Assembly: GCA_045605805.1 (NCBI GenBank)
Contig: JAZUQR010000018.1
Coordinates: 1-19,237 of the forward strand
Direction: 5' to 3'
From: Alphaproteobacteria bacterium
Lineage (GTDB): Bacteria > Pseudomonadota > Alphaproteobacteria > CAAHEQ01 > UBA3637
DNA length: 19,237 bases
The translations under genes were made by a program, and so were the position numbers. This document shows, one piece after another, positions 72-19,237 of the stretch. The stretch's first letter is position 1, and each line of letters starts with the position of its first letter. The notes below the pieces were generated by a model. The model searched no databases and was not told the origin of the DNA. It saw nothing but the letters and a program-made list of their open reading frames with translations.

Positions 72-129
72 TTTCTCTCCTTTCACCTCTCCTTTTTACT
101 CTATATATCATTGAATGTCAAGAAAAAAA

Positions 130-158
130 TAGACAATCCAAAAAAACTATGCTATAAA
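130..158 (+). promoter_or_regulatory. putative sigma70 promoter of the Sel1 gene
   Basis: TAGACA (130-135), 17 bp, TATAAA (153-158), with an extended TGn. Confidence 0.45.
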
Positions 159-178
159 TTATTTTACGAGGTGACACC

Positions 179-1561: not shown

Positions 1562-1562
1562 C

Positions 1563-1600
1563 CAATAAAAAAAGCCTCTTAACCGAGGCTTTTTTTATTG
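1563..1600. terminator. bidirectional intrinsic terminator between the Sel1 gene and rbr
   Basis: Perfect 16-bp inverted repeat CAATAAAAAAAGCCTC / GAGGCTTTTTTTATTG between convergent genes. Confidence 0.9.
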
Positions 1601-1608
1601 TTTTTATT

Positions 1609-2181
1609 TTACCAGTTGCGAGCTGCTAATTCAAAATAGGCTTGTGGATGGGCGCAGGCCGGACATTTTTCCGGTGCAGATTTGCTGTTCATCACAAATC
1701 CACAGTTGCGACAACGCCATTCGTTTTCACCAGAGCGTTCAAACACTTCACCTTTTTCAATATTTTCTTTCAAGGCAACATAGCGTTCTTCGTGGAATTT
1801 TTCGGCCACAGACACAGCACGCCATACAGCAGCAATTTCTGGGAAACCTTCTTCATCGGCTTTTTGGGCCATTGCCGGATAGGCCATAGACCATTCTTCT
1901 TTTTCACCCATGGCTGCGGCAGCCAAATTTTCCACTGTTGTTCCAATTTTTCCAGCTGGGAATGTGGCTTCTATTGTTAAATCACCGCCTTCCAAAAACT
2001 TGAAGAACCGTTTTGCATGTTCTTTTTCTTGGTTGGCTGTTTCTTCAAAAATAGCGGCAATTTGTTCATAACCTTCTTTTTTGGCAACGCTTGCAAAATA
2101 TGTATAACGATTACGAGCTTGTGATTCACCAGCAAAAGATTTTAACAGGTTTTTTTCGGTTTCTGTTCCTTTTAATGTCAT
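1609..2181 (-). CDS. rbr: rubrerythrin
   Basis: LKGTETEKNLLKSFAGESQARNRY N-terminus, di-iron ExxH motifs (EKEH, EKFH), C-terminal rubredoxin knuckles CRNCG...CPAC. SD AGGAG. Confidence 0.97.
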   Translation of the reverse strand: MTLKGTETEKNLLKSFAGESQARNRYTYFASVAKKEGYEQIAAIFEETANQEKEHAKRFFKFLEGGDLTIEATFPAGKIGTTVENLAAAAMGEKEEWSMAYPAMAQKADEEGFPEIAAVWRAVSVAEKFHEERYVALKENIEKGEVFERSGENEWRCRNCGFVMNSKSAPEKCPACAHPQAYFELAARNW

Positions 2182-2207
2182 GTCTTCTCCTTTTGTTAAA
2201 CAATATG

Positions 2208-2236
2208 ATTATATGTTAAATCATACAAAATGTAAA
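2208..2236 (-). promoter_or_regulatory. sigma70 promoter of rbr
   Basis: TTTACA (2236-2231), 17 bp, TATAAT (2213-2208). Confidence 0.7.
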
Positions 2237-2238
2237 GC

Positions 2239-2271
2239 AAAAAAATCCCCTTCTTTGCAGAAGGGAATTTT
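2239..2271 (-). terminator. intrinsic terminator of the Cys-rich pilin-like gene
   Basis: On the minus strand, AAAATTCCCTTCT-GCAA-AGAAGGGGATTTTTTT: a stem with a GNRA loop and T-tract about 15 nt after the stop. Confidence 0.8.
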
Positions 2272-2285
2272 GTTGATTCAGCAAT

Positions 2286-5210: not shown

Positions 5211-5261
5211 CGTTCCTCCTGCTCTTAAACAAAATAACACAAAAAAACTTTTAATGTTTGT

Positions 5262-5289
5262 ATTATATCATATTTTTCATTTTTTGCAA
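5262..5289 (-). promoter_or_regulatory. sigma70 promoter of the pilin-like gene
   Basis: TTGCAA (5289-5284), 16 bp, extended TGaTATAAT (-10 at 5267-5262). Confidence 0.6.
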
Positions 5290-5307
5290 GTTTTTTGTTA
5301 GGGAGAT

Positions 5308-5336
5308 AAAAAACACCTTGCTGTTCACAAGGTGTT
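5308..5336 (-). terminator. intrinsic terminator after tRNA-His
   Basis: 9-bp stem AACACCTTG / CAAGGTGTT followed by a T run on the minus strand. Confidence 0.8.
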
Positions 5337-5347
5337 GGAAAATGAAA

Positions 5348-5425
5348 TGGGGCGGAAGATCGGACTCGAACCGACGACATCTGGTACCACAAACCAGCGC
5401 TCTAACCAACTGAGCTACATCCGCC
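5348..5425 (-). tRNA. tRNA-His(GTG)
   Basis: Cloverleaf: G-1, acceptor GCGGATG/CTTCCGC, anticodon arm CTGGT-TTGTGGT-ACCAG, T-loop TTCGAGT, C73, encoded CCA. Confidence 0.97.
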
Positions 5426-5442
5426 ATTTGTTGATGTGTGGT

Positions 5443-5472
5443 ATATTACCATAATTCTGAATAAAATGTCAA
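5443..5472 (-). promoter_or_regulatory. sigma70 promoter of tRNA-His
   Basis: TTGACA (5472-5467), 18 bp, TGgTAATAT (-10 at 5448-5443). Confidence 0.65.
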
Positions 5473-5482
5473 GAAAAAAAGT

Positions 5483-5507
5483 AAAGGCTCTGAAATCCAG
5501 AGCCTTT
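5483..5507 (-). terminator. intrinsic terminator of rne
   Basis: 10-bp stem AAAGGCTCTG / CAGAGCCTTT directly after the stop, followed by T-rich sequence. Confidence 0.8.
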
Positions 5508-5512
5508 TTTCT

Positions 5513-7510
5513 TTAATTCACCAACCGATTCCACCAACCTTTTTTCACTTCTTTTTCCGTTTTTGGCTGTTCAGGTGTTTCAACCTTTTCCGAGGTTTTA
5601 GGCTGATTTTCTTTGTTTTCTTTGGCTTTTTTATTTTGATTTTTACCTTGACGATTGGCTTTATTTTCTTTTTTCTTTTCTTCTTCAACCTGAGTCAACG
5701 GGGCTTGTTCTACCACCGTAAAACCTTCTTCCGTTTTTTCAAAAATCTGTTGAGCCTGTTGTTTATGCTTCTTTTTCCAATCCCGATGACGACGACCACG
5801 ACGACCTTTTACATCATCCCCAATGGAAATTTCATCTCCCAAAGCCGCCAAATCAACTTTATTGCCGTGGGGCAAAAGGGTGTTTTCTTGAGTCACTGGC
5901 ACACGATTACCATCTTCACGCAGGCGTTCTAATTTGAAATCATCCACCTTCATCAAAGAACGATCTGTGCGTACTTGAATCCCTACTTGGTAATTTTTTT
6001 CCAATTCCAGCAAATGGACTCGCTTATTATTGGAAAGATATTCTGCCACCTCGGTTGTCACAGACAAAAACAGCGATGTTCTTGGGTTTTTAATGGCTGT
6101 TTCTTCCAAAAGACGCAACGCACGCATCGCACTGGATTCAACAGAACGGACAACCCCCATGCCGCCACAACACGGACATGTTTTATAACTGGATTCCAAA
6201 AAGCTGGAATGCAAACGCTGTCTTGTCATTTCAATCAAGCCGAAGCCAGACATACGCCCCACCTGAATGCGCGCTCTGTCACGCTTTAAGGCTTCTTTCA
6301 AATGGCGTTCAACGGCTGCATTATTTTTGGGTTCGTCCATATCAATAAAGTCAATCACAATCAACCCAGCTAAGTCACGCAACCGCAATTGACGAGCCAA
6401 TTCTTGACATGTTTCCAAATTGGTTTGAAGGGCTGTTTCTTCAATGTTGTGTTCCCGTGTGGAACGACCAGAGTTCACATCAACCGCCACCAAGGCTTCC
6501 GTTTGGTCAATGACCAAATAGCCTCCCGAAGGCAACCGAGCAATATGATTATGAATTTGTTCCAACTGTGCTTCCACATGGTATTGACAAAACAGTGGTT
6601 CTTTGCCTTTATATTCTTTGACTTTTTTCACCTGAGCAGGCATTAAAGATTTGACAAAGGCTTTGGCTGTTTTGAACGAGGATTCGCCTTCCACGATAAT
6701 TTCTTCAATATCAGTTGTAAAGACATCCCGCAACGAGCGTTTGATGATATCCCCTTCTTCATGAATCAACTTCGGAGCAATGGATTTTAAGGTTAAATCC
6801 CGAATTTGTGTCCATGTTTTCATCAGGTAATCAAAGTCCCGTTTAATATCTGTTTTTGTTTTACCTTGACCTGCTGTACGCACAATCACACTCATCCCAT
6901 CAGGAATGGGCAATTTATCAACGATAGCACGCAAATCCTTACGATCTTGGGCGTTGGATATTTTTCTGGACACACCACCGCCTTTGCCGTTATTCGGCAT
7001 CAACACACAAAAACGACCCGCTAATGACAAATAAGTTGTCATAGCAGCCCCTTTGTTGCCCCGTTCTTCTTTCACCGCTTGAACAAGCATTACTTGACCT
7101 GGGTGAATCACCTCTTGAATCCGATATTTTTTATAAAAGGACGGACGGACACGCACCACTTCTTCGGTTTCATTGATATTTTCATCATCCGATTCTGTTT
7201 CTTCTTCCGAATCGTGTTCTGCTTCGGCAACCATTTCTTTTTTCAAGGCTTCCCTATCGTCCACTGGAATCTGATAATAATCCGGATGAATCTCGCCAAA
7301 AGCCAAAAAGCCATGTCGGTTGCCGCTGTATTCAACAAAGGCCGCCTGTAAAGACGGTTCAACCCGAATCACTTTTGCAAGATAGATATTTCCTTTTATT
7401 TGTTTTTTATTGCGAGTGTCAACATCTAATTCGTCCAGCAGACCCTCGTCCAATATAACCACACGAGTTTCCTCTGGATGTGTGGCATCAATAAGCATTT
7501 GTTTTGACAT
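5513..7510 (-). CDS. rne: ribonuclease E (Rne/Rng family, alphaproteobacterial type)
   Basis: MLIDATHPEETRV, KGNIYLAKVIRVEPSLQAAFVEY, KEERGNKGAA, catalytic DVNSG and VIDFIDM, Zn-link CPxCxGxG, acidic S1 insert, C-terminal KKGWW. Confidence 0.96.
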   Translation of the reverse strand: MSKQMLIDATHPEETRVVILDEGLLDELDVDTRNKKQIKGNIYLAKVIRVEPSLQAAFVEYSGNRHGFLAFGEIHPDYYQIPVDDREALKKEMVAEAEHDSEEETESDDENINETEEVVRVRPSFYKKYRIQEVIHPGQVMLVQAVKEERGNKGAAMTTYLSLAGRFCVLMPNNGKGGGVSRKISNAQDRKDLRAIVDKLPIPDGMSVIVRTAGQGKTKTDIKRDFDYLMKTWTQIRDLTLKSIAPKLIHEEGDIIKRSLRDVFTTDIEEIIVEGESSFKTAKAFVKSLMPAQVKKVKEYKGKEPLFCQYHVEAQLEQIHNHIARLPSGGYLVIDQTEALVAVDVNSGRSTREHNIEETALQTNLETCQELARQLRLRDLAGLIVIDFIDMDEPKNNAAVERHLKEALKRDRARIQVGRMSGFGLIEMTRQRLHSSFLESSYKTCPCCGGMGVVRSVESSAMRALRLLEETAIKNPRTSLFLSVTTEVAEYLSNNKRVHLLELEKNYQVGIQVRTDRSLMKVDDFKLERLREDGNRVPVTQENTLLPHGNKVDLAALGDEISIGDDVKGRRGRRHRDWKKKHKQQAQQIFEKTEEGFTVVEQAPLTQVEEEKKKENKANRQGKNQNKKAKENKENQPKTSEKVETPEQPKTEKEVKKGWWNRLVN

Positions 7511-7747
7511 TTGATTAAATCCTTTATATTAAAATTAAATTGTTTGGGGGCATAAGTATATGCCAAAGATAACACTTTGGGGCCCGTGACCAAGCCCAAG
7601 ACAAACATTAAAAAGATACATATTTCAACCATTATATTGTTCACCTTTGTTATCAAAAATTTTTTTTGGAGCAATTTTTTTATTGCTTTTTTTATTATAT
7701 AGGTATATGAAGAAATAAGCAAGTGTTTTTTTTACATATAGGGAAAA

Positions 7748-8914
7748 ATGTTAAAACGACTTTTTATTTGTTTATGGCTTATACTGGGGATGATTTTCCC
7801 TGCGTTTGCGCAAAGCATTCAAAATCTGCGTCTTTCAGCCAGTGATGACCAGACTGTGCGTTTTGTGGTTGATTTAAGCCATCAAACAAACATTAAACTT
7901 TCAAAATTGACTCAACCTCCCCGTTTTGTGATTGATATAGAAAATGCTTCTTTTGATGCCGGTGTTCAAAACAAAACCTTTTCAAATACAGGTTTTATTT
8001 CCGGCATTCGCACAGGCACCCCAACCCCAAATACAAGCCGAATCGTGTTAGATTTACCTTCGGCCGATATTACAGAAAAGCATTTTACCCTTGAACCACA
8101 AGCCGGTTCTTCTTGGCGTTTTGTGATTGATTTGAAGGCAAATTCACCCCAAGTTGGCGTGAAAGCCTTTTCCAACAATGCCCAAACAGTGGCTACGCAG
8201 GCCCCCTCCAGCACCGCCAAAAAATCTGCCCCAAAGAAAAAAATCATTATGCTGGATGCGGGACATGGCGGACAAGACCCTGGTGCCATTTCCAGAACAG
8301 GCAAATACGAAAAAGACTTGACCTTGAAAATGGCAAAAGAAACAAAGGCTTTGTTGGAAAAAGCCGGTTATAAGGTTGTCATGACTCGTGATAAGGATGT
8401 TTATATTTCCTTACGGGGACGCATTGAACGGGCCCACAAAGCCAACGCTGATTTATTTATTTCTATTCATGCTGACAGTGCCAAAAATCCATCGGCCAAA
8501 GGATTGTCTGTTTATACTATTTCAGAAACTGCTTCTGACAAAGAGGCGGCTGCATTGGCCGAAAGCGAAAATAAATCGGACATTTTGTTTGGCATGGATT
8601 TAAGCGATTATCAACCAGAAGTGGGGAACATTTTAATTGACTTTGCCAAAACCTATACTATGGATCAATCAGCCAAATATGCTGACGAAGTAGTGAAAGA
8701 GATGGCCAAAGAAGTGACTTTGCGCCCCAAAGCCCATCGCTATGCCGGTTTTGTGGTGCTTAAATCCCCCAACATTCCTTCTGTTTTATTAGAATTAGGC
8801 TATTTATCCAATAAACAAGAAGACAAACAACTTCAAAAGGAAAGTTATCGCAAAAAACTTTCACAAGCATTGGTGCGGGCGGTCAATACTTATTTCAAAA
8901 AGCATGCCGAATAA
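7748..8914 (+). CDS. amiC: N-acetylmuramoyl-L-alanine amidase (AMIN + Amidase_3; AmiC-like)
   Basis: Signal peptide, AMIN domain (PPRFVIDI, RIVLDL), amidase motifs LDAGHGGQDPGA, EKD, FISIHAD and PSVLLELGYLSN. Confidence 0.92.
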   Translation: MLKRLFICLWLILGMIFPAFAQSIQNLRLSASDDQTVRFVVDLSHQTNIKLSKLTQPPRFVIDIENASFDAGVQNKTFSNTGFISGIRTGTPTPNTSRIVLDLPSADITEKHFTLEPQAGSSWRFVIDLKANSPQVGVKAFSNNAQTVATQAPSSTAKKSAPKKKIIMLDAGHGGQDPGAISRTGKYEKDLTLKMAKETKALLEKAGYKVVMTRDKDVYISLRGRIERAHKANADLFISIHADSAKNPSAKGLSVYTISETASDKEAAALAESENKSDILFGMDLSDYQPEVGNILIDFAKTYTMDQSAKYADEVVKEMAKEVTLRPKAHRYAGFVVLKSPNIPSVLLELGYLSNKQEDKQLQKESYRKKLSQALVRAVNTYFKKHAE

Positions 8915-8922
8915 ATAATTAC

Positions 8923-8951
8923 TTGCTTTTTGGCGCTTTTTCAGATATATT
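8923..8951 (+). promoter_or_regulatory. putative ssrA promoter
   Basis: TTGCTT (8923-8928), 17 bp, TATATT (8946-8951), which places the start near 8958. Confidence 0.55.
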
Positions 8952-8957
8952 ATATGT

Positions 8958-9258
8958 GTCAGGCAACTGACTATGATGCTAAACGGCAAATGGAATAGAT
9001 GTTGTGGACTCGGGGGCGGTACCCGACACCTCCACCATTTATGGGGGTGACACAGTTTCGACACGCATAGTAAAGATTGTGCTTTGTATCCGGCATGGTA
9101 TCCACCGTTATCGGGCTGAACAAAATAAATGCGAACGATAATAATGCTCGCATTGCAATGGCCGCCTAATTTTAGGCGTCTAGCGCAATCATGATTCTGG
9201 GGTCAATTTAGCGACGCCAGTGGGGTTTGGGGGTGACCTAGCAACAGAATACTCCCAC
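8958..9258 (+). ncRNA. ssrA: circularly permuted two-piece tmRNA; tag (A)ANDNNARIAMAA*
   Basis: The acceptor piece comes first: T-arm TCGGG-GGCGGTA-CCCGA, then CACCTCC-A-CCA ending at 9037. The coding piece starts GGGGGTG at 9043 (G3:U70 Ala determinant). Tag ORF 9131-9169 follows TAAAT. Outer boundaries are approximate. Confidence 0.95.
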
Positions 9259-9279
9259 TTTTTTGAAGGGGATTCCTAT

Positions 9280-9690
9280 ATGAAAGATTATTCATCTTAT
9301 ATGCAAAAAGCCTTTTTGGGCGTTGTTCATGATGTTTTGAAGGATGTGGCTCAAAACGGTTTAACCGATGGGGCGTACTATATGATTACTTTTGAAACAC
9401 CGTATGCTGTTATTCCCGATTTTTTACGAGCCAAATACCCCAACGAGATGACCATTGTTTTACAAAATCAATTTGACAATTTGATTGTGGATAAAGATAA
9501 GTTTTCGGTTGATTTAAGTTTTGGTGGGGTGGCCAGCACGATTGTTGTGCCGTTTCATACCTTAAAATCTTTTGCCGATCCGGATGCCCAGTTTGGCTTT
9601 CATTTAATGCCCACGCAACCGGCCGATACAGCGAAAAATGACGGCTCTGTGGCCGAAGTGATTGATTTGGCTTCTCGGAGAAAAAAATAA
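9280..9690 (+). CDS. sspB: ClpXP specificity-enhancing factor SspB (alpha type)
   Basis: YMITFET..., YPNEMTIVLQNQFDNL.V...FSVDLSFGG, PF..LKSFADP, C-terminal VIDLASRRKK ClpX-docking tail. Start moved to ATG 9280 because the longer ORF overlaps ssrA. Confidence 0.93.
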   Translation: MKDYSSYMQKAFLGVVHDVLKDVAQNGLTDGAYYMITFETPYAVIPDFLRAKYPNEMTIVLQNQFDNLIVDKDKFSVDLSFGGVASTIVVPFHTLKSFADPDAQFGFHLMPTQPADTAKNDGSVAEVIDLASRRKK

Positions 9691-9908
9691 TGCGCAAACA
9701 TTCGGTTGTTTTATCCGGACACGCCACAAGCCTTTGTTTGGAAGATGCGTTTTGGGATACCTTAAAGGAAATTGCCACACAAAAGGGTGTTGCTGTCCGC
9801 CAACTGATGATGGAAATTGACAATGCTCACACAGGCAATTTATCCAGTGCGGTGCGCCTTTATATCCTTCAAGAATTAAAACGACAACTGGCCGCTTATA
9901 AGAAATAA
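9690..9908 (+). CDS. ribbon-helix-helix domain protein (RHH_4-like)
   Basis: KHSVVLSGHATSLCLEDAFWDTLKEIA...IDN...NLSSAVRLYIL. Translationally coupled to sspB (TAATG overlap). Confidence 0.88.
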   Translation: MRKHSVVLSGHATSLCLEDAFWDTLKEIATQKGVAVRQLMMEIDNAHTGNLSSAVRLYILQELKRQLAAYKK

Positions 9909-10654
9909 AGCAACACACAGATTCCCAAAATAATTCTGTATAGCCCGAACACAAAGAACGAGGCTTTATTTAACCATTTTATCAAAAAGGTGATGGCTAT
10001 CATTCCAAAGATGGCCGAAGACACAAGTGCTACTGCCAATTCCTGACTTGGTGGCATTATCATTTGTCCTGATGAGGCTTTCCAAATGGTATAAATACCG
10101 GCCAACAGGATGGTCGGGATGGATAACAACATCGCAAAACGGGCGCTTTCTTCCCGCTTAAAACCACGCCATCTTGCGCAAGTCATTGTGATGCCGGAAC
10201 GACTTGTCCCTGGGATGACCGATAACACTTGTGCCACACCAATTAAAAAAGCATCCATAAAGCTCATCTGTTGCAACCTTCTGGAACAAGGTGCCTTTTC
10301 ATCTACCTTCCACAAAAGCCATCCAAAAAAGATAGAGCTGAGACCAATAACGGTTGCCCCCCGCAACAGTTTTATATCACAAAAATGAATGGCGGCCCCC
10401 ACAACCACTATTGGCACTGTTCCCACAATCAATTTACTTAAAAGATGGATATCTTTTAACAATATCATGCGCACAATATCTTTTCTGAAATACAGTATCA
10501 CAGCCAACAATGTACCGATATGCAAGGCAATATCCACCACAATCCCTTGGTCAGATAATCCAAAAAGATTAGACAACAATAAATGCCCCGAAGAACTTAT
10601 TGGTAAGAACTCGGTCAGACTTTGCAAAAATGCCAAAAAAATTAAAACGCCCAT
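9896..10654 (-). CDS. uppP: undecaprenyl-diphosphate phosphatase (BacA family)
   Basis: QSLTEFLPISSSGHL and PGTSRSGIT motifs, multiple TM helices. Overlaps the 3' end of the RHH gene by 13 nt. Confidence 0.96.
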   Translation of the reverse strand: MGVLIFLAFLQSLTEFLPISSSGHLLLSNLFGLSDQGIVVDIALHIGTLLAVILYFRKDIVRMILLKDIHLLSKLIVGTVPIVVVGAAIHFCDIKLLRGATVIGLSSIFFGWLLWKVDEKAPCSRRLQQMSFMDAFLIGVAQVLSVIPGTSRSGITMTCARWRGFKREESARFAMLLSIPTILLAGIYTIWKASSGQMIMPPSQELAVALVSSAIFGMIAITFLIKWLNKASFFVFGLYRIILGICVLLYFL

Positions 10655-10676
10655 TTTTTTCTATCCTTTTTATTTT

Positions 10677-10705
10677 AAGCTATCCTTTTTATAAAGTGCT
10701 GTCAA
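10677..10705 (-). promoter_or_regulatory. putative uppP promoter
   Basis: TTGACA (10705-10700), 17 bp, TAGCTT (10682-10677). Confidence 0.5.
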
Positions 10706-10721
10706 GAACAACTTTTCTCTC

Positions 10722-10749
10722 TTGCCTTTTCAAAAAAAATTTTTATACT
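10722..10749 (+). promoter_or_regulatory. putative bat operon promoter
   Basis: TTGCCT (10722-10727), 16 bp, TATACT (10744-10749), ending 7 nt before the ATG. Confidence 0.55.
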
Positions 10750-10756
10750 GTTTAAT

Positions 10757-11743
10757 ATGTATCAATTTGTTTGGCCGATTGTTTTTTGTCTTTTACCGCT
10801 GCCTTTTGTAATCAGGTGGCTTTTTGGTGGTTCGTCCGTTTCTGCAACAGTCAATCCCGAGGCTTTGAAAGTGCCTTTTTTTGAACGACTTCAACAATTA
10901 CAGGCCCCCACTGCCTTGCCTAATCGTTTTGTTTCTCCTTTGTTATGGAGCTTGGTATGGCTTTGTTTTGTGATTGCTGCTGCTCGTCCCGTATGGGTTG
11001 GTGAACCGATTCTGTTGGACAAAGAAGCCCGCAACATTGTTTTAACTTTGGATGTTTCCGGTTCAATGGAAGAACAGGACTTTGATATCAATCGCCAACC
11101 GATTACCCGATTGGATATGGTGAAACGCCTTGCCAATGATTTTATTACGCAACGCAAGGGCGACAATTTGGGGTTGGTTATTTTTGGTTCAGAGGCCTAT
11201 TCGTATGCCCCTTTATCTCCGGACACAAAAACTTTAGCCGGATTGATGGATGAAATTGGCATTGGCATTGCCGGTTCACAAACAGCCATGGGGGATGCTT
11301 TGGCTATGGCTGTTCAAAGCGTTGTTTCCGTTCCGGAAAAGGCACGCATTGTTCTTTTAATGTCTGATGGTTTTGCCAATGCGGGCGTTGTTTCGGTAAA
11401 AGATGCGTTGGAATTGGCCAAAAACAATCAAGTGAAGGTGTACACAATCGGTATTGGTTCGGACAGACAAACTGTTCAGGACTTTTTGGGGTTTGTTCAA
11501 ATGAATGCATCGCTGGACTTAGACGAAGAAACCCTGCGCCATGTGGCCAAAGAAACAGGCGGGCAGTATTTCCGTGCTAAAACAAGTGATGACCTTAAAA
11601 AGATTTATGATTTGATTGATCAATTGGAAACAACCAAGGCTGAAAGCACTGCTGTGCGCCCCAGACGAGAAATGGCGTTTTATTTCCTTTTGGCCGGTTT
11701 TGCTTTTTGGTTGATGGCCTTTATGATAAGGGGGCGTGCATGA
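10757..11743 (+). CDS. batA: BatA-like membrane-anchored vWA-domain protein
   Basis: N-terminal F.WP...LLPLP TM, AAARP.W motif, intact MIDAS (DVSGS, T, SDG), TGGQYFRA, C-terminal TM. Confidence 0.9.
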   Translation: MYQFVWPIVFCLLPLPFVIRWLFGGSSVSATVNPEALKVPFFERLQQLQAPTALPNRFVSPLLWSLVWLCFVIAAARPVWVGEPILLDKEARNIVLTLDVSGSMEEQDFDINRQPITRLDMVKRLANDFITQRKGDNLGLVIFGSEAYSYAPLSPDTKTLAGLMDEIGIGIAGSQTAMGDALAMAVQSVVSVPEKARIVLLMSDGFANAGVVSVKDALELAKNNQVKVYTIGIGSDRQTVQDFLGFVQMNASLDLDEETLRHVAKETGGQYFRAKTSDDLKKIYDLIDQLETTKAESTAVRPRREMAFYFLLAGFAFWLMAFMIRGRA

Positions 11744-13233
11744 TTTTTATCAGACCGTTTCTGTTATTATTACTGATTGTACCGTTTTTATTCAAAATTA
11801 GCAAATCACGGGGAAGCACAAAAACGCCGTGGACAAAGTGGGTGGATGCAACATTATTACCCGCCTTACTTGTGGGTGACCGTCAAAACCATTCTTTTGG
11901 TTTATGGCGCAAGAGCTTGATTTTACTATGGTCTCTTTTTGTTATTGCCAGTGCGGGGCCGGCTTTTGACAAGTTGCCCGTTCCTGTTGGCACAAGTTTG
12001 CCAAACACGGTTTTGATTTTTGACTTAGGGCCTGCCATGCAAGGGGCGACTTTGGCCAACGCCAAAATCAAACTGAACGATTTACTGACAGCCTTAAAAG
12101 GCAACCGAGTTGGCCTTGTGCTTTATGCCGACAAAGGCTATACTGCCGTTCCTTTAACGCAAGACAGGGCTTTGATTCGGGCATTGATTCCCACACTTGA
12201 TCCTTCTGTTTTACCCAATCCGCAACAAAATCCGGCTGCTGCTTTCCACTATGCCGACACCCTTATTCAACAAAGTGGCGGTAATGGGCGCATTCTTTAT
12301 ATCACAGCCGGTGGGGTGGATGGGCGCAACATCAAGTCTGCCTATCCTATTGGTGTTTTGGGCCTTGATGACAAAGCAGTATCGGCCACTCTTAAACAAT
12401 TGGGTGCTTATCAAGCAAAAAGCGCAGATGCTTCGGATATTTTATCTTTATTAAAGGCCACGGAACCAGATACATCCATTCAATTTGACATGGATGAAAC
12501 AGCCGATGAATGGGCTGATTTGGCTGGCCTTCTTACTTTAATTTTATTGCCATTTTTTGCTTTTACTTTCAAAAAAGGTTTTTTGTTCGGATTGCTTTTT
12601 TTCTTTATCATACCGGCTCAGGCGGCTTTCTTCTTGCGCCCCGATCAACAGGCTTATTACCACCATCAAGAAGCGGTTAAACATTACAGAAAGGGGGCTT
12701 ATGAAAAAGCCATTCAAGGGTTTGAAAATCATCCTTACAATCAAGGCAATGCTTTGGCCCATGCTGGCAAGATTCAAGAAGCCATTCAAGCCTATACCAA
12801 AGAATTAAAGATAAATCCTGATAACGAAGATGCTCGTTTTAACAAAGAGTATTTAGAAAAACAACTGCCGCCACCCGAACAGCAAAATCAGCAATCTGAA
12901 CAACAAAAATCAGATCAAGACAATCCTGATCAACAGGCGGACTCGCAAAATCAAGATGATCAACAAAGCAACGAAGAAAACCAAAACTCTCAAAAAAATG
13001 ACTCTCAACAACAGCCACAAGATTCTTCCCAACAACAAGAAAATCAAGCCAATGCGTCTCAACCCACTGAACCACAAGACAATGAAGAACAGATTCAACA
13101 ACAAGAGGTAGATGAATCCAGTCGGGAAAAATCTCCGTTTAATCAGGAAGAACAACAAGTTCTTAACCGTTTGAATACAGACCCTTATCGGGTTTTAAGA
13201 TACAGACTTCAACAACAAGCGAGGAAAAAATGA
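11740..13233 (+). CDS. BatB/BatC-like vWA + TPR fusion protein
   Basis: ATG 11740 overlaps the batA stop (ATGA). FIRP..LLLL, AGP, vWA (NRVGL..YA...PLT.D), TPR (YNQGNALA..G..QEAI.AY...L..NP...DA.FN), Gln/Asp/Asn/Glu-rich linker, DP...LR tail. Confidence 0.85.
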   Translation: MIFIRPFLLLLLIVPFLFKISKSRGSTKTPWTKWVDATLLPALLVGDRQNHSFGLWRKSLILLWSLFVIASAGPAFDKLPVPVGTSLPNTVLIFDLGPAMQGATLANAKIKLNDLLTALKGNRVGLVLYADKGYTAVPLTQDRALIRALIPTLDPSVLPNPQQNPAAAFHYADTLIQQSGGNGRILYITAGGVDGRNIKSAYPIGVLGLDDKAVSATLKQLGAYQAKSADASDILSLLKATEPDTSIQFDMDETADEWADLAGLLTLILLPFFAFTFKKGFLFGLLFFFIIPAQAAFFLRPDQQAYYHHQEAVKHYRKGAYEKAIQGFENHPYNQGNALAHAGKIQEAIQAYTKELKINPDNEDARFNKEYLEKQLPPPEQQNQQSEQQKSDQDNPDQQADSQNQDDQQSNEENQNSQKNDSQQQPQDSSQQQENQANASQPTEPQDNEEQIQQQEVDESSREKSPFNQEEQQVLNRLNTDPYRVLRYRLQQQARKK

Positions 13234-14645
13234 AACTTATTTTATTGATAATTTGCTGTTTTTTAAGTTCATCTGTTTGGGCCAAGATTACCGCAGAGTT
13301 TAAGCCGAATCCCATGAATCAAGGCGGAACGACCGAACTTATTTTAACCTCCAATCAACCCTTTAACGGTGTGCCGAATTTGGATGTTTTGAAACAAGAT
13401 TTTGTGATTGGTGGCCAACAACAGCGTCAATCTTCCCGTTGGGTGAACGGCAAAAGTTCGGCTTTATATCAAATGTCTTTCACTTTATTTCCAAACAAAT
13501 CGGGCGATATTCGTGTGACCGGATTCAAAGTTGGGGAAGAAGATATCGTGATGCCTGTTTTAACGGTGGGGAAAAATAAAGCCTATGAAACACAAGGGAA
13601 AGTTTTGTTGGAAGTTTCCTGCCCACAGGCAAGCCTTTACCCTGCACAGAAACTGTTATGTAGTGTCTGGCTTGAAGATTCTATGGGCTTAGTGGATGGG
13701 CAAATTGTACCGCCCAATATGCCAGAAGGCGTGTGGGAACAGGTGTTGCCGCCTATGCCTGTGGCGGGGGGCAAAGGAACGGCTCAACGCTATCAAAGTG
13801 CCTTTTCTTTCACCCCAAAACAAAGTGGCTTGATTAAGATACCGCCTTTTATTTTTCAAGGCGCAGCTCGTTTAAGGACACAACAAAATCGTTCTTTTAA
13901 CAGTATTTTTGATATTATGACTGGTTCGTTGCCTTCTACGGCCACACAGCCTGTTGGGGCGCAAAGTGCTCCATTTTCCTTAAAAATCAAAGAAAAGCCT
14001 GCCAATTACACGGGGTGGTGGTTGCCAAGTTCTCAGGTCACCCTTACCGAAACCTTTGATGCCCCCAAAAGCATTGCCATTGGCGAACCCATCAGTCGCA
14101 CTTTTATCCTTCGGGCAAAAGATGTGTTGGCCGAAGATATGCCTGTGGTACAAGTACCTCAAACGCAAGGCTTGAAATCCTATGCTAATCCGGAAAAACG
14201 CTTAAATCTGAACGATGGGGGGCAAGTTGAGGTGACGGTGACTTTTGTGCCAACTGTGGCGGGCGAATTGCTTTTGCCTGAGGTGAAAGTTCCTTGGTTT
14301 AACACCGCCACGGAGCAGATTCAAGAAGCCACTTTACCGCCTCAATCCATTGTTGTGCAAGGGGGGGCAGAGGCTGTATCTGATAGCTTACCCCAAACAA
14401 AACAGGTTATATCACAACCACAACCTGAACCTTCGGAAAAAAGCAAACCGCAATTGGTGCAAAAACCTATCACGCAAGCTCCAGCTTCTGTGGCGTGGAG
14501 ATGGGTTGCTCTGTTTGGATTGGGGGCGTTCCTCTTTGGGATTTTGATTGCCTTTCTTGTATTTCGCCATTTTTCAAAGAAACAAGCAAAGGCGCAACTT
14601 TCTTCCAAAAAGAAAAAACCTTTGCCTGATTTATACCCTTTTTGA
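13230..14645 (+). CDS. batD: BatD-family (oxygen tolerance) protein
   Basis: Signal peptide, Ig-like beta-rich repeats (S.WVNG, PNKSG, WLP...TL, GEP..RT, PWFNT), C-terminal TM. ATGA overlap with the previous gene. Confidence 0.85.
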   Translation: MKLILLIICCFLSSSVWAKITAEFKPNPMNQGGTTELILTSNQPFNGVPNLDVLKQDFVIGGQQQRQSSRWVNGKSSALYQMSFTLFPNKSGDIRVTGFKVGEEDIVMPVLTVGKNKAYETQGKVLLEVSCPQASLYPAQKLLCSVWLEDSMGLVDGQIVPPNMPEGVWEQVLPPMPVAGGKGTAQRYQSAFSFTPKQSGLIKIPPFIFQGAARLRTQQNRSFNSIFDIMTGSLPSTATQPVGAQSAPFSLKIKEKPANYTGWWLPSSQVTLTETFDAPKSIAIGEPISRTFILRAKDVLAEDMPVVQVPQTQGLKSYANPEKRLNLNDGGQVEVTVTFVPTVAGELLLPEVKVPWFNTATEQIQEATLPPQSIVVQGGAEAVSDSLPQTKQVISQPQPEPSEKSKPQLVQKPITQAPASVAWRWVALFGLGAFLFGILIAFLVFRHFSKKQAKAQLSSKKKKPLPDLYPF

Positions 14646-14720
14646 TAAAAAGTACTTGACTTTTATTTCAAAATCGTGTAAAACTATTGGCACGAGTTTA
14701 CAGAAGAAAGGATTTTTAAC

Positions 14721-15014
14721 ATGACAAAAAAGTGTCTGGTGACTGAAAAAGGCGTGATGTCCGGCAATAACAACTGTTATTCCAAAAAGAAAACACGTCG
14801 TCGTTTTATGCCTAATTTGCAAAATGTGGCTATTTACAGCGAAATCTTGGAAATGCCAATTACAATTCGCATTTCTTCCACTGGTTTGCGCACCATTGAA
14901 AAAAATGGCGGTTTGGATTTGTATCTTTTGAATACACAATCTTCCAAATTGTCCGAAGAATGCAAAGAATTGCGTGATCGGATTTTGGCTGCCAAAGCAA
15001 AAAAAGGTGTGTAA
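14721..15014 (+). CDS. rpmB: 50S ribosomal protein L28 (long alpha type)
   Basis: C..T.KGVMSGNN.....KTRRRFMPNLQ...SE.L......IST.GLRTIEKNGGLD.YLL. SD AAGGA. Confidence 0.95.
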   Translation: MTKKCLVTEKGVMSGNNNCYSKKKTRRRFMPNLQNVAIYSEILEMPITIRISSTGLRTIEKNGGLDLYLLNTQSSKLSEECKELRDRILAAKAKKGV

Positions 15015-15032
15015 TCTGATTTTGGGTTGAAC

Positions 15033-15068
15033 AAGCGCCGTTTCTTTTGAATCGGCGCTTTTATTTTT
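15033..15068 (+). terminator. intrinsic terminator after rpmB
   Basis: AAGCGCCG.TTC-TTTT-GAA.CGGCGCTT followed by TTATTTTT. Confidence 0.8.
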
Positions 15069-15083
15069 GAAAAGGAGAATCTT

Positions 15084-15566
15084 ATGTCTGAACCATATCA
15101 ACGCCCTTCGTGGGATGAATACTTTTTGGAAGTTATGCATGCTTTAGCCAAGCGAGCCACTTGTGACAGGGGTAGAACAGCCTGTGTGATTGTGAAAGAC
15201 AAACAAATTATTGCCTCAGGTTATGTTGGCTCTCCGGCCGGTTTGCCCCACTGTGACGAAGTTGGCCATTTAATGAAAAAGGTCATTGATGATGATGGCA
15301 CAATCAGCGAACATTGTATGCGCACTATTCATGCCGAACAAAATGCTATTTGTCAAGCGGCCAAAAGGGGTGTCTCCATTGAAGGGGCAACCATTTATTG
15401 CAAACTGGCCCCTTGTCGTACCTGTGCTATGCTGTTGATTGCCTGTGGCATTAAACGGGTGGTGGCGGAATATAAATATCATGCCGGCACAGAGGCCGAA
15501 GAAATGATGTTAAAAGCCGGCATTCAAATTGATTATGTGCATGATGAAACCTTGCAATACAAATAA
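15084..15566 (+). CDS. dCMP deaminase (ComEB-like, cytidine/deoxycytidylate deaminase family)
   Basis: RPSWDEYF, RATCDR, HAEQNAI and PCRTC zinc-binding motifs. SD AGGAG. Confidence 0.93.
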   Translation: MSEPYQRPSWDEYFLEVMHALAKRATCDRGRTACVIVKDKQIIASGYVGSPAGLPHCDEVGHLMKKVIDDDGTISEHCMRTIHAEQNAICQAAKRGVSIEGATIYCKLAPCRTCAMLLIACGIKRVVAEYKYHAGTEAEEMMLKAGIQIDYVHDETLQYK

Positions 15567-15589
15567 GAATATCTTTTTTTAAGATAGTT

Positions 15590-16276
15590 TTATCTGATGA
15601 TTAAATTCGGAAACACTTCCTTGATGGGGGCAAGGGCCTGAGGGGTGAAAAAGGCATCTATTTGTGTTTGTGAGGGGGGATTTTTATCTCCCTCAAAGGT
15701 ATGGTATGCCTGTAAAGCATAGCTTTTCACCCCCATTTGTTTTAACTCTGTGGCCATTTTTATCACATCTTGGGAAGTTAAAAAAGCAGGATCGCAAGTT
15801 GTTCGGCACTCAAAATTGATTTGTGCTTTTAACAACACATTCAAACTTTCTTGCACTTTTGGTGCCATATTCGGCCGACCACATAATGTATTATATTTTT
15901 CCCATGGTGCTTTGATATCCAGCCCCACCCAATCCACAAATGACACTATTTCTTTTAATTTTTCGGGATAGACACCTGCGGTATGAATCCCCACTTTGAA
16001 GCCCATTTGTTTGATTTGTTGACACGATGGTAAGATATCCGGTTGCATCAGAGGTTCCCCACCAGACAGAACAAGGGCATCTAATTTCCCTTGCCTTGAT
16101 GCCATAAACCGCACAACCTCATCCCACGCCATATCACTTTGGCCATTTGAAACTTGAAGATTCGGATTATGACAAAAAGGACACCTGAGTGGGCATCCTT
16201 TGAAAAAAACAACGGCCGCCAAGCACCCAGGATAGTCAATTGTTGTGAAGGGGACTAATCCAGCGACCGTTGGCAT
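15590..16276 (-). CDS. nrdG: anaerobic ribonucleoside-triphosphate reductase activating enzyme (radical SAM, long form)
   Basis: TTIDYPG...AVVF..GCPLRCPFCHN (CxxxCxxC), SGGEP, DWVGLDIKAP, ECRTT. In operon with nrdD. Confidence 0.93.
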   Translation of the reverse strand: MPTVAGLVPFTTIDYPGCLAAVVFFKGCPLRCPFCHNPNLQVSNGQSDMAWDEVVRFMASRQGKLDALVLSGGEPLMQPDILPSCQQIKQMGFKVGIHTAGVYPEKLKEIVSFVDWVGLDIKAPWEKYNTLCGRPNMAPKVQESLNVLLKAQINFECRTTCDPAFLTSQDVIKMATELKQMGVKSYALQAYHTFEGDKNPPSQTQIDAFFTPQALAPIKEVFPNLIIR

Positions 16277-16288
16277 AAAAAACTCCTG

Positions 16289-16477
16289 TTAGCCGGCAAT
16301 TTTCATGGTGCAGGCGCAGCTGCAATTTTCTTCCTTAAACCATTGCCGTTCGTCAAATTCGGATTTTTTCCCTTTATTAAAATGGCTGTATGGACGGAAA
16401 TATCCCATCACACGAGTCCACACTTCAACCGGTTGACGCAACGCTTCGTTTTGTTCCAAAATTTCTTGATCTGTCAT
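16289..16477 (-). CDS. stand-alone NrdD glycyl-radical domain (62 aa)
   Basis: EVWTRVMGYFRP...FNKGK.SEF..R is the class III RNR glycyl-radical motif. It has its own SD (AAGGAG) and ATG 20 nt after the nrdD stop. Confidence 0.9.
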   Translation of the reverse strand: MTDQEILEQNEALRQPVEVWTRVMGYFRPYSHFNKGKKSEFDERQWFKEENCSCACTMKIAG

Positions 16478-16497
16478 GTTATACTCCTTTCTTTTTA

Positions 16498-18552
16498 TTA
16501 TTGTTGTTCTTGTTCTTTATGTTTTTTTTCTAATAATTCTTTATCGCACAGAGGGCAATACTTATGCGCCCCTGCAATATAGCCATGTTTCGGGCAGATA
16601 GAATACACCGGCGTCACAGATACATAAGGCAACCGATAGTTGGTTAAAACCCGTTTCACCAAGTCTTTACAGGCCGAGGATGACGAAATGCGTTCGTTCA
16701 TATACAGATGCAACACTGTGCCACCTGTGTATTGTGTTTGCAGGTCATCTTGATAATCCAAGGCCACAAACGGGTCATTGGTAAAGCCCACAGGCAATTG
16801 AGATGAATTGGTGTAGTATGGGGCTTCTTTTGTACCGGCTTGGATGATATCCGGAAAGCGTTTTTGGTCTTCACGGGCAAAACGATAGGTTGTGCCTTCG
16901 GCCGGTGTCGCTTCCAAGTTATACATATTCCCTGTTTCATCTTGATAATCCAACAACTTTTCACGCATATGTGTTAAGAACTTTTTGGCAAACTCACGCC
17001 CCCAATCGGTTGTGATGTCTTCTTTATCGTTCGTGAAGTTGCGAATCATTTCGTTGATACCATTCACACCAATTGTGGAAAAGTGGTTACGGAAAGTTCC
17101 CAAATAGCGGCGGGTATAAGGATACAGGCCTCGTTCCAAATGCATGGCAATTGTTTGTCGCTTTAATTCAAGTGACTTTTTGGCCAATTCCATCAATTCG
17201 TCCAAGCGTTTATATAACCCTTCTTCATCTTCCTTAAACAGATAACCCAAACGGGCGCAGTTGATTGTGACCACACCGATAGAGCCTGTTTGTTCGGCCG
17301 AACCGAACAAGCCTCCGCCTCGTTTTTTTAATTCGGTTAAGTCCAACCGCAGACGACAACACATACTGCGTACATCCGATGGTTTCATATCTGAATTCAT
17401 ATAGTTTGAAAAATACGGCAATCCATATTTTGCAGTCATTTCAAACAGCAAATCAATGTTGGCCGAATCCCATGGGAATTCGTTTGTAATGTTATAGGTT
17501 GGAATTGGGAAAGTGAACGGACGGCCTTTGGCATCCCCTTCTCCCATCACTTCCAAGAAGGCCTTGTTTATCATATCCATTTCGGGTTGCAAATCACCAT
17601 AGGTGAACGGTTGTTCTTCCCCCCCGATGATTGGATGACGATCTTTCAAATCGGCCGGACAGGTCCAGTCAAATGTCAAGTTCGTGAATGGCGTTTGTGT
17701 TCCCCAACGAGAAGGCACATTCAAGTTAAAGATGAAGGATTGCATGGCCTGTTTCACATCTTTATAATCCAATTTTTCAATGCGCACGAAAGGGGCTAAA
17801 TATGTATCAGCAGACGAAAAAGCCTGCGCCCCTGCCCATTCGTTTTGAAGTGTTCCCAAAAAGTTCACCATTTGTGAAAAAGCACTGACCAAATGGCGGG
17901 GAGGATTAGATTCTGTTTTGTTTGGCACACCATTAAAACCTTCTTGCAACAACACACGCAACGACCATCCCGCACAATAGCCGGCCAACATATCCAAATC
18001 ATGAATATGATAATCCCCATCTTTGTGGGCAGCGCCTATTTCGGGTGTATAGACATGTTTTAACCAATAATTGGCCACCACTTTGCCAGACACATTTAAT
18101 ATCAACCCCCCCAAGGAATAGCCTTGGTTTGCATTGGCATTCACACGCCAATCTGAACGATCCACATATTCATTGATGGATGAAATCGCATCCACAATAG
18201 CTTGTTGATCTTTTCGTTGGCGTTCCCGTTGTTCACGATAGACAATGTAGGATTTTGCTGTTTTATAATAGTTGGACGAAATCAAAACCTGTTCCACAAC
18301 ATCTTGAATCTGTTCAATGGTTGGTACAATGGCATCCCCAAAACGGTGACGCAAAACCTTGATCACTTGACCAGACAGCAATTCGGCCTCATCATTACCA
18401 TATTCCCCTGTGGCAAAACCGGCTTTGGCGATTGCACTGACAATCTTTTGGCTGTCAAAAGCAACCTGTGCGCCATCCCGTTTAATGACACCGGACAGTG
18501 GGCCAGCATCCAAGATATCATTTTCTCTTTTATTTTGAACAACTTCCAACAT
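16498..18552 (-). CDS. nrdD: class III (anaerobic) ribonucleoside-triphosphate reductase, catalytic core lacking the glycyl-radical domain
   Basis: ATP cone (VIKRDG...FD..KI..AI), HIHDL, YC, finger loop SMCCRL, EATPAE, YTGG, Zn site CPKHGY...CPLC. No RxxGY motif before the stop. Confidence 0.95.
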   Translation of the reverse strand: MLEVVQNKRENDILDAGPLSGVIKRDGAQVAFDSQKIVSAIAKAGFATGEYGNDEAELLSGQVIKVLRHRFGDAIVPTIEQIQDVVEQVLISSNYYKTAKSYIVYREQRERQRKDQQAIVDAISSINEYVDRSDWRVNANANQGYSLGGLILNVSGKVVANYWLKHVYTPEIGAAHKDGDYHIHDLDMLAGYCAGWSLRVLLQEGFNGVPNKTESNPPRHLVSAFSQMVNFLGTLQNEWAGAQAFSSADTYLAPFVRIEKLDYKDVKQAMQSFIFNLNVPSRWGTQTPFTNLTFDWTCPADLKDRHPIIGGEEQPFTYGDLQPEMDMINKAFLEVMGEGDAKGRPFTFPIPTYNITNEFPWDSANIDLLFEMTAKYGLPYFSNYMNSDMKPSDVRSMCCRLRLDLTELKKRGGGLFGSAEQTGSIGVVTINCARLGYLFKEDEEGLYKRLDELMELAKKSLELKRQTIAMHLERGLYPYTRRYLGTFRNHFSTIGVNGINEMIRNFTNDKEDITTDWGREFAKKFLTHMREKLLDYQDETGNMYNLEATPAEGTTYRFAREDQKRFPDIIQAGTKEAPYYTNSSQLPVGFTNDPFVALDYQDDLQTQYTGGTVLHLYMNERISSSSACKDLVKRVLTNYRLPYVSVTPVYSICPKHGYIAGAHKYCPLCDKELLEKKHKEQEQQ

Positions 18553-18559
18553 TTTGTGT
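18544..18559. promoter_or_regulatory. NrdR box 2 (overlaps the nrdD start codon)
   Basis: TTCCAACATTTTGTGT keeps all core positions (C4, A6, A8, T9, T11, G13) of acaCwAtATaTwGtgt. It lies 33 bp from box 1. Confidence 0.6.
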
Positions 18560-18576
18560 GCCTTCCCTTTCTTTTG

Positions 18577-18592
18577 ATACTATATATTGTGT
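18577..18592. promoter_or_regulatory. NrdR box 1
   Basis: ATACTATATATTGTGT, a 15/16 match to consensus acaCwAtATaTwGtgt, 25 bp upstream of nrdD. Confidence 0.85.
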
Positions 18593-18920
18593 TATATATT
18601 TTTTTCTTCTGTCCATAATAAAGCCCGAAATGAGAAGGAAGTCAACAAAAAAAACACAAAAAATAAACTTTTTTATAACCCTTTCAAAAACAAGTATTTT
18701 TTATTTATTTTTTTTGGATTTTTTTTCTTCAAATCTATTAACTTTTAGACAAATATTTGGCGCAAAATTAGTTAATTTTTGGCGTTTGCCCTTGATAATG
18801 CGTTGCTTTCTAACATACACAATGATGCAGGAAGCGATTCGGTGGATTTTAGCGAATCGGTGCGAATCGGGTTTTTGCTTTTCTTTTCATTCTTTTATGC
18901 AATCAATCAACAAAAAACTC

Positions 18921-18949
18921 TTGACTTTTTATTTGAAAGCGCATAGAAT
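18921..18949 (+). promoter_or_regulatory. sigma70 promoter of the tRNA-Gly/tRNA-Leu pair
   Basis: TTGACT (18921-18926), 17 bp, TAGAAT (18944-18949), with an A-rich UP-like tract upstream. Confidence 0.8.
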
Positions 18950-18960
18950 GTTTTTACTTA

Positions 18961-19031
18961 GCGGATGTAGTACAATGGTAGTACAGCAGCTTCCCAAGCT
19001 GAATACGAGGGTTCGACTCCCTTCATTCGCT
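18961..19031 (+). tRNA. tRNA-Gly(CCC)
   Basis: Acceptor GCGGATG/CATTCGC, anticodon loop TTCCCAA, T-loop TTCGACT, U73. CCA is not encoded (CAT follows). Confidence 0.95.
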
Positions 19032-19108
19032 CATAAAGGAAACTATACAGCAATCTAATCTTCGATTTTTTTTGGCTTTCGATAACAACATGTTTCCTGT
19101 TAATAATT

Positions 19109-19189
19109 CGGGCTGTGGCGGAATTGGTAGACGCCCCAGACTTAGGATCTGGTGCCTTGTGCGTGTGGGTTCGAGTCCCACCAGCTCGA
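19109..19189 (+). tRNA. tRNA-Leu(TAG)
   Basis: Acceptor CGGGCTG/CAGCTCG, D-arm GCGGAATTGGTAGACGC, CCAGA-CTTAGGA-TCTGG, variable arm, A73. CCA is not encoded (CAA follows). Confidence 0.95.
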
Positions 19190-19237
19190 CAATATCGGTA
19201 CTCTTTTGAGTACATAACCTCAACCTAACATGTAAGG

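Follow-up and report, generated by a model that had tools for sequence, protein, structure and literature searches.

Oxygen destroys glycyl radical enzymes through cleavage of the polypeptide chain at the radical glycine, and the only remedy for such damage known to us is GrcA/YfiD, the spare part of pyruvate formate-lyase (PFL). The present analysis concerns the genes of a class III ribonucleotide reductase (RNR) found on contig JAZUQR010000018.1 (positions 1 to 19,237, forward strand; GenBank assembly GCA_045605805.1) of a gut alphaproteobacterium of the GTDB lineage CAAHEQ01; UBA3637. This whole stretch of 19,237 nucleotides is called the window in the following. The catalytic chain of the enzyme, NrdD, has probably been split by gene fission between its Zn ribbon and its glycyl-radical hairpin, the small chain being a putative obligate radical subunit that acts in trans.

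The closest described systems are the single-chain NrdD proteins, such as those of phage T4 (1h79) and T. maritima (4coi/4u3e), those of the family NF006126/PRK08270, the fused protein P0392 (594 amino acids (aa), linker of about 4 residues) and phiCTP1 gp46. They share with the locus the ATP-cone, the barrel, the MCCR finger loop, the Zn site, the RVMGY hairpin and an adjacent activase of the NrdG2 type. However, in single-chain NrdD the glycyl hairpin lies about 4-7 residues past the Zn site on the same chain (P0392, phiCTP1), whereas here it is encoded by a separate gene; relative to the single-chain proteins, about 16 residues have been added to the split NrdD as a tail, and the small protein has acquired a leader of some 12 residues in front of the conserved ERQ motif.

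Small stand-alone proteins with a glycyl-radical hairpin are likewise known as cofactors of PFL, namely GrcA/YfiD and T4 Y06I (PMC8683613, PMC13450708). The grcA gene stands apart from that of its enzyme, as do the orphan copies described below. The original prediction, made from the letters of the window alone, had invoked this spare part as an analogue. The analogy holds for the existence of a stand-alone glycyl-radical protein, but not for its type or its role: GrcA/YfiD is of the PFL type, whereas the small protein of the window is homologous to NrdD (PF13597) and not to PFL, and GrcA is a spare, whereas the small protein would be obligate, the only radical part of its enzyme, because the parent NrdDs of 52 operons have no glycyl domain of their own. 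Only two spare-part proteins, both for PFL, are presented as validated in PMC8683613 (2021), the 2026 review (PMC13450708) likewise limits validated spare parts to PFL, and both leave open the case of other glycyl radical enzymes.

Split RNRs of other kinds have also been described. In the class II enzyme of Pseudomonas aeruginosa, NrdJa/NrdJb, two adjacent genes are likewise found and a C-terminal functional module resides on the second chain (PMC9669993), but NrdJb carries Zn-finger and redox-tail functions rather than the radical site, whereas here, in a different class, the separated piece is the radical cofactor. The RNR large subunit of Aeromonas phage Aeh1 is, as here, made of two polypeptides (PMC3045599); Aeh1 nrdA was split by a mobile element (PMC3045599), whereas the 20-nt spacer of the window holds none, and in a phage-like locus discussed below (L070/L075) the gap holds a DNA methylase gene. 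A full-text literature search, with subscription papers and supplements outside its scope, found no description of a split class III RNR.

The elements of the locus are as follows.

16498..18552, minus strand: nrdD core, 684 aa, with the ATP-cone (residues 22-110), the catalytic barrel, the finger loop and the Zn site, and without the glycyl-radical motif.
16546..16596, minus strand: codons of CPKHGY...CPLC, the Zn-binding site, past which the large chain has no further conserved element.
16478..16497, minus strand: 20-nt spacer from nrdD to the small gene, with the second TAA, the Shine-Dalgarno (SD) sequence GAAAGGAG and 7 nt to the ATG.
16289..16477, minus strand: gene of the putative stand-alone glycyl-radical subunit, 62 aa, with an N-terminal helix, a beta-hairpin (RVMGY, G25 at the tip), a helix and a Cys-containing tail, CSCAC.
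16403..16405, minus strand: codon of Gly25, the predicted radical site, G25 being invariant in 58 of 58 aligned small proteins.
15590..16276, minus strand: nrdG, coding for the radical S-adenosylmethionine activase, 228 aa, with the cluster motif CPLRCPFC, 12 nt past the small gene.

The nrdD gene ends ...SICPKHGYIAGAHKYCPLCDKELLEKKHKEQEQQ (also given as ...CPKHGYIAGAHKYCPLCDKELLEKKHKEQEQQ) and is followed by TAA TAA. The small gene begins with the ATG at 16477, its RVMGY corresponds to residues 22-26 (16414-16400), and its open reading frame (ORF) is out of frame with nrdD because 20 is not a multiple of 3. These elements, namely an nrdD that ends after its Zn site with TAATAA, an out-of-frame spacer of 20 nt with the SD sequence AAGGAG, a 62-aa ORF with RVMGY and then nrdG, had all been described in the original prediction and each of them was found in its place. 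No promoter-like or terminator-like site was found in the 20-nt spacer, the counts of promoter sites being no higher than in shuffled sequences, and tblastn found no second copy of the small gene in the window.

Pfam and NCBIfam cover the two ORFs in a complementary fashion and, therefore, nrdD and the small ORF tile one single-chain family model, far beyond chance. Along the 562 positions of PF13597 (Pfam), NrdD, which has the ATP-cone in addition, accounts for 2-529 (583 bits) and the small ORF for 531-561 (E 8.7e-8, 31.7 bits, gathering cut-off 26.2); along the 684 positions of NF006126 (NCBIfam), NrdD spans 4-660 (1137 bits, cut-off 548) and the small ORF 649-683. NrdD also matches TIGR02487 (476 bits, cut-off 326), and the nrdG product matches TIGR02495, NrdG2 (6e-62, 208 bits, cut-off 131). 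Searched against Pfam up to E 0.1, the small ORF matched PF13597 (NRDD) alone, with no PFL-type Gly_radical domain, and neither Pfam nor NCBIfam was found to hold a model dedicated to the small protein. Among solved structures, T. maritima NrdD (4coi) aligns with the window NrdD over residues 104-613, and a profile of the small protein, when compared with PDB sequences, matched 4coi/4u3e only, weakly, over 4coi residues 612-644 (E 0.78).

In an alignment of 22 NrdD sequences, the MCCR finger loop (M397, C398, C399, R400) is invariant in 22 of 22, as are C653, H656, C666 and C669 of the Zn site, a predicted metal site whose first pair is Cys/His (CPKH) and not Cys/Cys. MGCR or MCCR is the finger-loop cysteine motif of class III NrdD, and the MCCR version is compatible with formate or thioredoxin as the reductant (PMC9669993, section 2.5). 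Beyond the last Cys of the Zn site, the chain continues as a tail of 15 residues and ends at residue 684; RxxGY is absent from its C-terminus and sits on the next ORF.

That similar splits occur in other genomes had been anticipated, and a survey of homologous loci had been named beforehand as a check. A scan of one genome per species gave at least 574 confirmed matches, the best 80 of which were analysed as loci. These loci and the cluster representatives considered further on were both ranked by likeness to the small protein and, for this reason, both lists favour split forms: they establish a large split family rather than its share among all NrdDs. In 80 of 80 loci the glycyl-radical piece is a separate small gene of 58-70 aa. 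These loci comprise 52 operons of nrdD and the small gene, 27 orphans and one locus cut by the end of its contig; nrdG lies downstream in 48 of the 52 operons. Between the nrdD stop and the ATG of the small gene there are -4 to 877 nt in the 52 operons, with a median of 29.5; the small gene lies in relative frame 0 in 11 of them, +1 in 27 and +2 in 14, and nrdD is closed by TAA in 37, by TGA in 8 and by TAG in 7. ATG opens every complete small gene (79 of 79), and 62 of these 79 have an SD-like site. As spacers, frames and stops vary across the loci, a shared sequencing artefact, read-through and programmed frameshifting are excluded.

The large chains agree with this arrangement. All 52 operon NrdDs end after the Zn site without a glycyl domain of their own, and all 120 of the NrdD homologues listed have about 677-721 aa and 83-100% identity. 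In each of the six homologues that were inspected, the chain stops a few residues past the Zn site, and the extra length of the four longer ones (704-721 aa) comes only from an N-terminal extension in the gene call. Three NrdD proteins from other sources have 684 aa and are 99-100% identical to that of the window; therefore, the same stop is present in other assemblies. On the side of the small protein, 190 stand-alone homologues of 58-88 aa were found, and an alignment of 58 small proteins has 21 invariant columns, including WTR.MGYFRP (W20, T21, R22, M24, G25, Y26, F27, R28, P29). The proportions of nonsynonymous and synonymous differences (pN and pS) in the small gene are 0.30 and 0.75, with synonymous sites near saturation; over non-saturated pairs, the ratio of nonsynonymous to synonymous substitution rates (dN/dS) has a median of 0.19 among operon copies and of 0.21 among orphans. 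The split is, by these comparisons, a real, old and widespread gene arrangement that is kept by purifying selection.

How far the family extends was seen in a profile search of 1.84 billion representatives of clusters at 50% identity, which gave 3892 hits at E ≤ 1e-3 and 826 at ≤ 1e-10. The best 150 of the 3892 all have 51-153 aa; RxMGY is present in 148 and no Zn site lies upstream of it in 147. The remaining 3 (P0375, P0357 and P0369) are fragments of fused NrdDs in which linkers of about 10-35 residues run from the Zn site to ERQxCEVWTRVMGY, and such long-linker forms are possible intermediates towards the split, or re-fusions. A search for longer relatives of the small protein yielded 2 proteins among 5 candidates, the fused P0392 of 594 aa and P0391 of 161 aa, which is weak evidence. 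ESM Atlas clusters of 62, 68 and 61 aa have 400, 135 and 52 members, the 61-aa cluster being half viral among the members with a record. The few source names attached to homologues of the small protein are ‘hypothetical protein’ or ‘anaerobic ribonucleoside-triphosphate reductase’.

Most carriers are Alphaproteobacteria of gut and rumen that have not been cultured, but the same split is found in a cultured and harmless strain, Pleomorphomonas koreensis DSM 23070, where a TGA is followed by 23 nt with AAGGAGAG and by the ATG, and nrdG overlaps the end of the small gene. It also occurs in a phage-like locus, binned in a Clostridia metagenome-assembled genome (MAG) and in a Paludibacteraceae MAG (L070 and L075), with a DNA methylase gene within the gap between nrdD and the small gene. 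In L070 (1183-4177) an nrdD without the cone is followed by an N6/N4 DNA methylase gene (259 aa, PF01555, 3.8e-35), a 58-aa glycyl-radical gene and an ORF with a weak likeness to RNA ligases. The match to NrdD in L075 falls into two aligned pieces about 400 nt apart. In a phage collection, the small protein of the window had no match and that of L070 had as its sole match the fused NrdD of ANMV-1; the NrdD of phiCTP1, the closest to L070 among the phage NrdDs inspected, is also fused.

Some members of the family deserve mention in their own right. In L013 (1762-3806) the NrdD match is in two pieces (query 1-628 and 631-680) at different reading positions, which suggests a frameshift or an assembly error in that MAG. 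The small proteins of L041, titled Holdemanella biformis, and of L045 (Lactobacillales) group with alphaproteobacterial ones, and the NrdD of L041 is 74% identical to that of the window; mis-binning is the probable cause, gene transfer a less likely one. In P0391 (161 aa), a glycyl-radical mini-protein is followed by a C-terminal thioredoxin-like part with a CQKC motif, whose matches to Thioredoxin_3 and Thioredoxin lie under the Pfam cut-offs (20.3 and 18 bits); this hints that the tail of the small subunit lies where the reductant docks. Of the small proteins, 42 of the 52 encoded in operons and 15 of the 27 orphans carry at least two Cys in their distal tail, and the tail of NrdD ends with C.C (ACSC or ACAC) in 8 of 52 loci; tail cysteines are absent from both fused relatives whose ends were inspected (P0392 and phiCTP1 gp46). 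The Cys pairs of the tails could form a redox shuttle or a metal site.

Modelling of the complex had been proposed from the start, and it was run on residues 120-684 of NrdD, the core, together with the small protein, in three runs and with three controls. The complex score was 0.88, 0.85 and 0.88, the best of the 3 controls reaching 0.00, against a mark that is met by 116 of 157 solved complexes and by 2 of 215 mismatched pairs; since structures of fused NrdDs have been solved, the pass indicates likeness to these rather than binding of this particular pair. The partner had a predicted local distance difference test score (pLDDT) of 78-79, contact agreement between the runs was ≥ 88%, and there were 154-158 confident contacts. 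The small protein is predicted to dock onto the NrdD core. In the model, its residues 17-20 are paired, next to the Zn ribbon, with NrdD 649-653, the stretch 13-29 with RVMGY touches the barrel segments 344-350, 376-378, 550-559 and 572-597, and residues 1-13 contact the NrdD tail (670-681). Because the N-terminus and the NrdD tail touch in the model, these two extensions, which are specific to the split form, may make up for the covalent link that was lost. In a model of the small protein without its partner (pLDDT 80.8), G25 forms the tip of a beta-hairpin.

Copies of the small gene that stand apart from the operon go beyond what the original prediction had foreseen. In 27 of the 80 loci the small gene has no nrdD or nrdG within about 4 kb. 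These orphans lie in conserved neighbourhoods unrelated to nucleotide reduction, the types of neighbour having been recognised by eye: an outer-membrane-like protein is the neighbour of 8, of which 6 are flanked on their other side by a transglutaminase-like protein, and 8 directly precede an RNase HI-like gene. In 8 genomes an operon copy is accompanied by an orphan, once on one contig, and such paired copies are identical at 34-54 of 61-62 residues, the differences being chiefly in the tails; orphans retain every residue that is invariant in operon copies. Operon and orphan copies are intermingled in a tree of the small proteins, where the orphan label needs 13 changes, at least 5 of which are forced by well-supported branches. 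A single origin of the orphans is not supported, given these 13 changes, in a tree built on few columns and with many unresolved forks.

A possible link of the orphans to RNR regulation comes from the following type of element.

18577..18592, no strand assigned: NrdR-like 16-bp palindromic box ATACTATATATTGTGT, 25-40 nt upstream of the nrdD ATG, with 1 mismatch.

Boxes were scored against a presumed NrdR-box consensus. At ≤3 mismatches, the box above is the only one in the window and no second box was found there; at this threshold, a box is present in 37 of 50 upstream regions of nrdD, in 5 of 26 of those of orphans and in 53 of 2000 random pieces of 250 nt. Its position is -39/-40 in many related loci. 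Three orphans (L037, L063 and L068; best box with 2-4 mismatches) have two boxes 31-33 nt apart, as is found upstream of several nrdD genes. The boxes would, thus, tie some orphans to RNR regulation, but with a presumed consensus the link is a lead, not proof.

The mechanism that we propose is the following. The 684-aa NrdD core would provide the ATP-cone, the barrel, the MCCR finger loop and the Zn site, and the 62-aa protein would give the glycine in trans, its strand (residues 17-20) being added onto NrdD 649-653, its RVMGY hairpin reaching into the barrel and its N-terminal helix packing on the new tail of NrdD (residues 670-681). NrdG would install the radical on Gly25 of the small chain, from which it would move to a finger-loop cysteine, as in the single-chain enzymes. 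We infer that the small chain holds the radical; as the sole radical site of the enzyme, it would confine oxygen damage to a chain of 62 residues. After cleavage by O2 at the glycine, only this subunit would be replaced, from the operon or from a pool formed by the orphan paralogues, which would be separately regulated. Of these steps, the exchange after oxygen damage is the least certain. The original prediction had pictured the oxygen-labile part as a small replaceable subunit: a separate, conserved and selected gene with predicted docking bears out the structural side of this picture, while the oxygen lability of the subunit and its replacement are conjectural, although the presence of orphan copies at unrelated loci, some of them behind NrdR-like boxes, strengthens this functional side. 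In its complete form the proposal, which we advance tentatively and as possible only, is that a large family of autonomous NrdD-type glycyl-radical proteins makes a three-protein class III RNR with an exchangeable radical subunit, in which the operon copy is the standing cofactor and the orphans, some under the control of NrdR, are the replacement pool, and in which a cleaved subunit is swapped and the new one activated by NrdG while the core is kept.

Several points weigh against this explanation. A subunit that is stably bound would yield the same sequence signals. The pass of the complex model may only mirror likeness to solved single-chain NrdDs, and the finger-loop cysteines 398/399 lie outside its confident contacts. 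A fold search of the lone small protein against the PDB gave 0 hits at E ≤ 0.001, the best being 4u3e_B (T. maritima NrdD) at E 3.6, with YfiD (6owr) at E 6.3. An electrostatic zipper between the NrdD tail and the N-terminus of the small protein, considered as a means of contact, found no support, the median net charges being -1 and -2. At ≤3 mismatches to the presumed consensus, 21 of 26 orphans have no box. Finally, the survey covered the best 80 of at least 574 loci and the 150 highest-ranked of the 3892 representatives, in lists that favour split forms.

The alternative that survives best is that of a neutral fission, in which a longer linker evolved first and was broken later. The two chains would then assemble a single time, remain bound and act exactly like a single-chain NrdD, the split would bring no benefit of repair or exchange and the orphans would be ordinary duplicates. 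By way of the long-linker fused forms this alternative explains most of the same data: linkers are graded, from about 4 residues in P0392 to about 10-35 in P0375, P0357 and P0369, the large predicted interface (154-158 confident contacts) suggests tight binding, and the 13 changes of the orphan label on the tree, at least 5 of them forced, indicate that duplication is frequent and could be incidental. Nevertheless, orphans are kept in conserved synteny, with 8 loci in each of the two largest neighbourhoods, and are under purifying selection as strong as that on operon copies (dN/dS 0.21 versus 0.19); NrdR-like boxes precede 5 of 26 of them, and close fused forms are very rare: the 5 candidates included 2 longer proteins, as compared with 190 small ones. 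On balance, we regard a fission without benefit as rather unlikely.

A function of the small proteins, or at least of the orphans, outside NrdD, be it as an NrdG decoy or radical store, as a regulator or as a cofactor of another glycyl radical enzyme, would agree with the orphans that have no NrdR-like box at ≤3 mismatches (21 of 26) and with neighbours unrelated to nucleotide metabolism (RNase HI, outer-membrane-like and transglutaminase-like). It appears quite improbable, as orphans hold all the residues invariant in operon copies and vary mostly in their tails, are placed by Pfam in the NRDD family only and not in the PFL-type Gly_radical family, and interleave with operon copies on the tree.

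A frameshift of sequencing or assembly, or a recent pseudogene of a fused nrdD, might be suspected from a junction that falls within an A-rich stretch, and a single window cannot rule out an indel, but it hardly needs to be entertained in the face of the double stop, to which the original prediction had already pointed, and the 20-nt spacer, the 684-aa NrdDs of other sources with 99-100% identity, the separate piece in 80 of 80 loci with varied spacers, frames and stops, and a dN/dS of about 0.19. Recoding, by which programmed frameshifting or stop read-through would join both ORFs, has only their adjacency in its favour and may be dismissed as next to impossible, given two consecutive stops in the window, frames of 0, +1 and +2 in 11, 27 and 14 of 52 operons with gaps of -4 to 877 nt, the separation of the two genes by a 259-aa DNA methylase gene in L070, an ATG in 79 of 79 small genes with an SD-like site in 62, and 27 copies without a nearby nrdD.

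Other genes of the window may be listed briefly. A dCMP/cytidine deaminase gene (15084-15566, plus strand) converges on the end of nrdG and is a second gene of deoxynucleotide metabolism beside the operon. Three ORFs with VWA, TPR and BatD domains (10757-14645) resemble the Bacteroides aerotolerance (Bat) cluster, and a rubrerythrin gene is present at 1609-2181; together they fit an anaerobe that is exposed to oxygen. A permuted transfer-messenger RNA was found by ARAGORN at 8945-9260 (plus strand), with the tag ANDNNARIAMAA, its 3′ end overlapping the GTG start called for an SspB-like ORF at 9220. A 984-aa ORF (2286-5240, minus strand) has no Pfam family at E ≤ 1e-5.

For annotation, the split means that a truncated NrdD could pass for a complete enzyme or for a pseudogene. 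For the enzymology of these systems, the small protein would be a natural minimal substrate of NrdG, and the pair of chains a natural system for radical transfer between two polypeptides. The question of spare parts is made directly testable for an essential enzyme of DNA-precursor synthesis, in at least dozens of species-level genomes that often have two copies of the small gene. If the proposal is true, PFL would no longer be the only glycyl radical enzyme with a spare-part or exchange system, and the new case would be that of oxygen-exposed gut Alphaproteobacteria and of a phage-like element.

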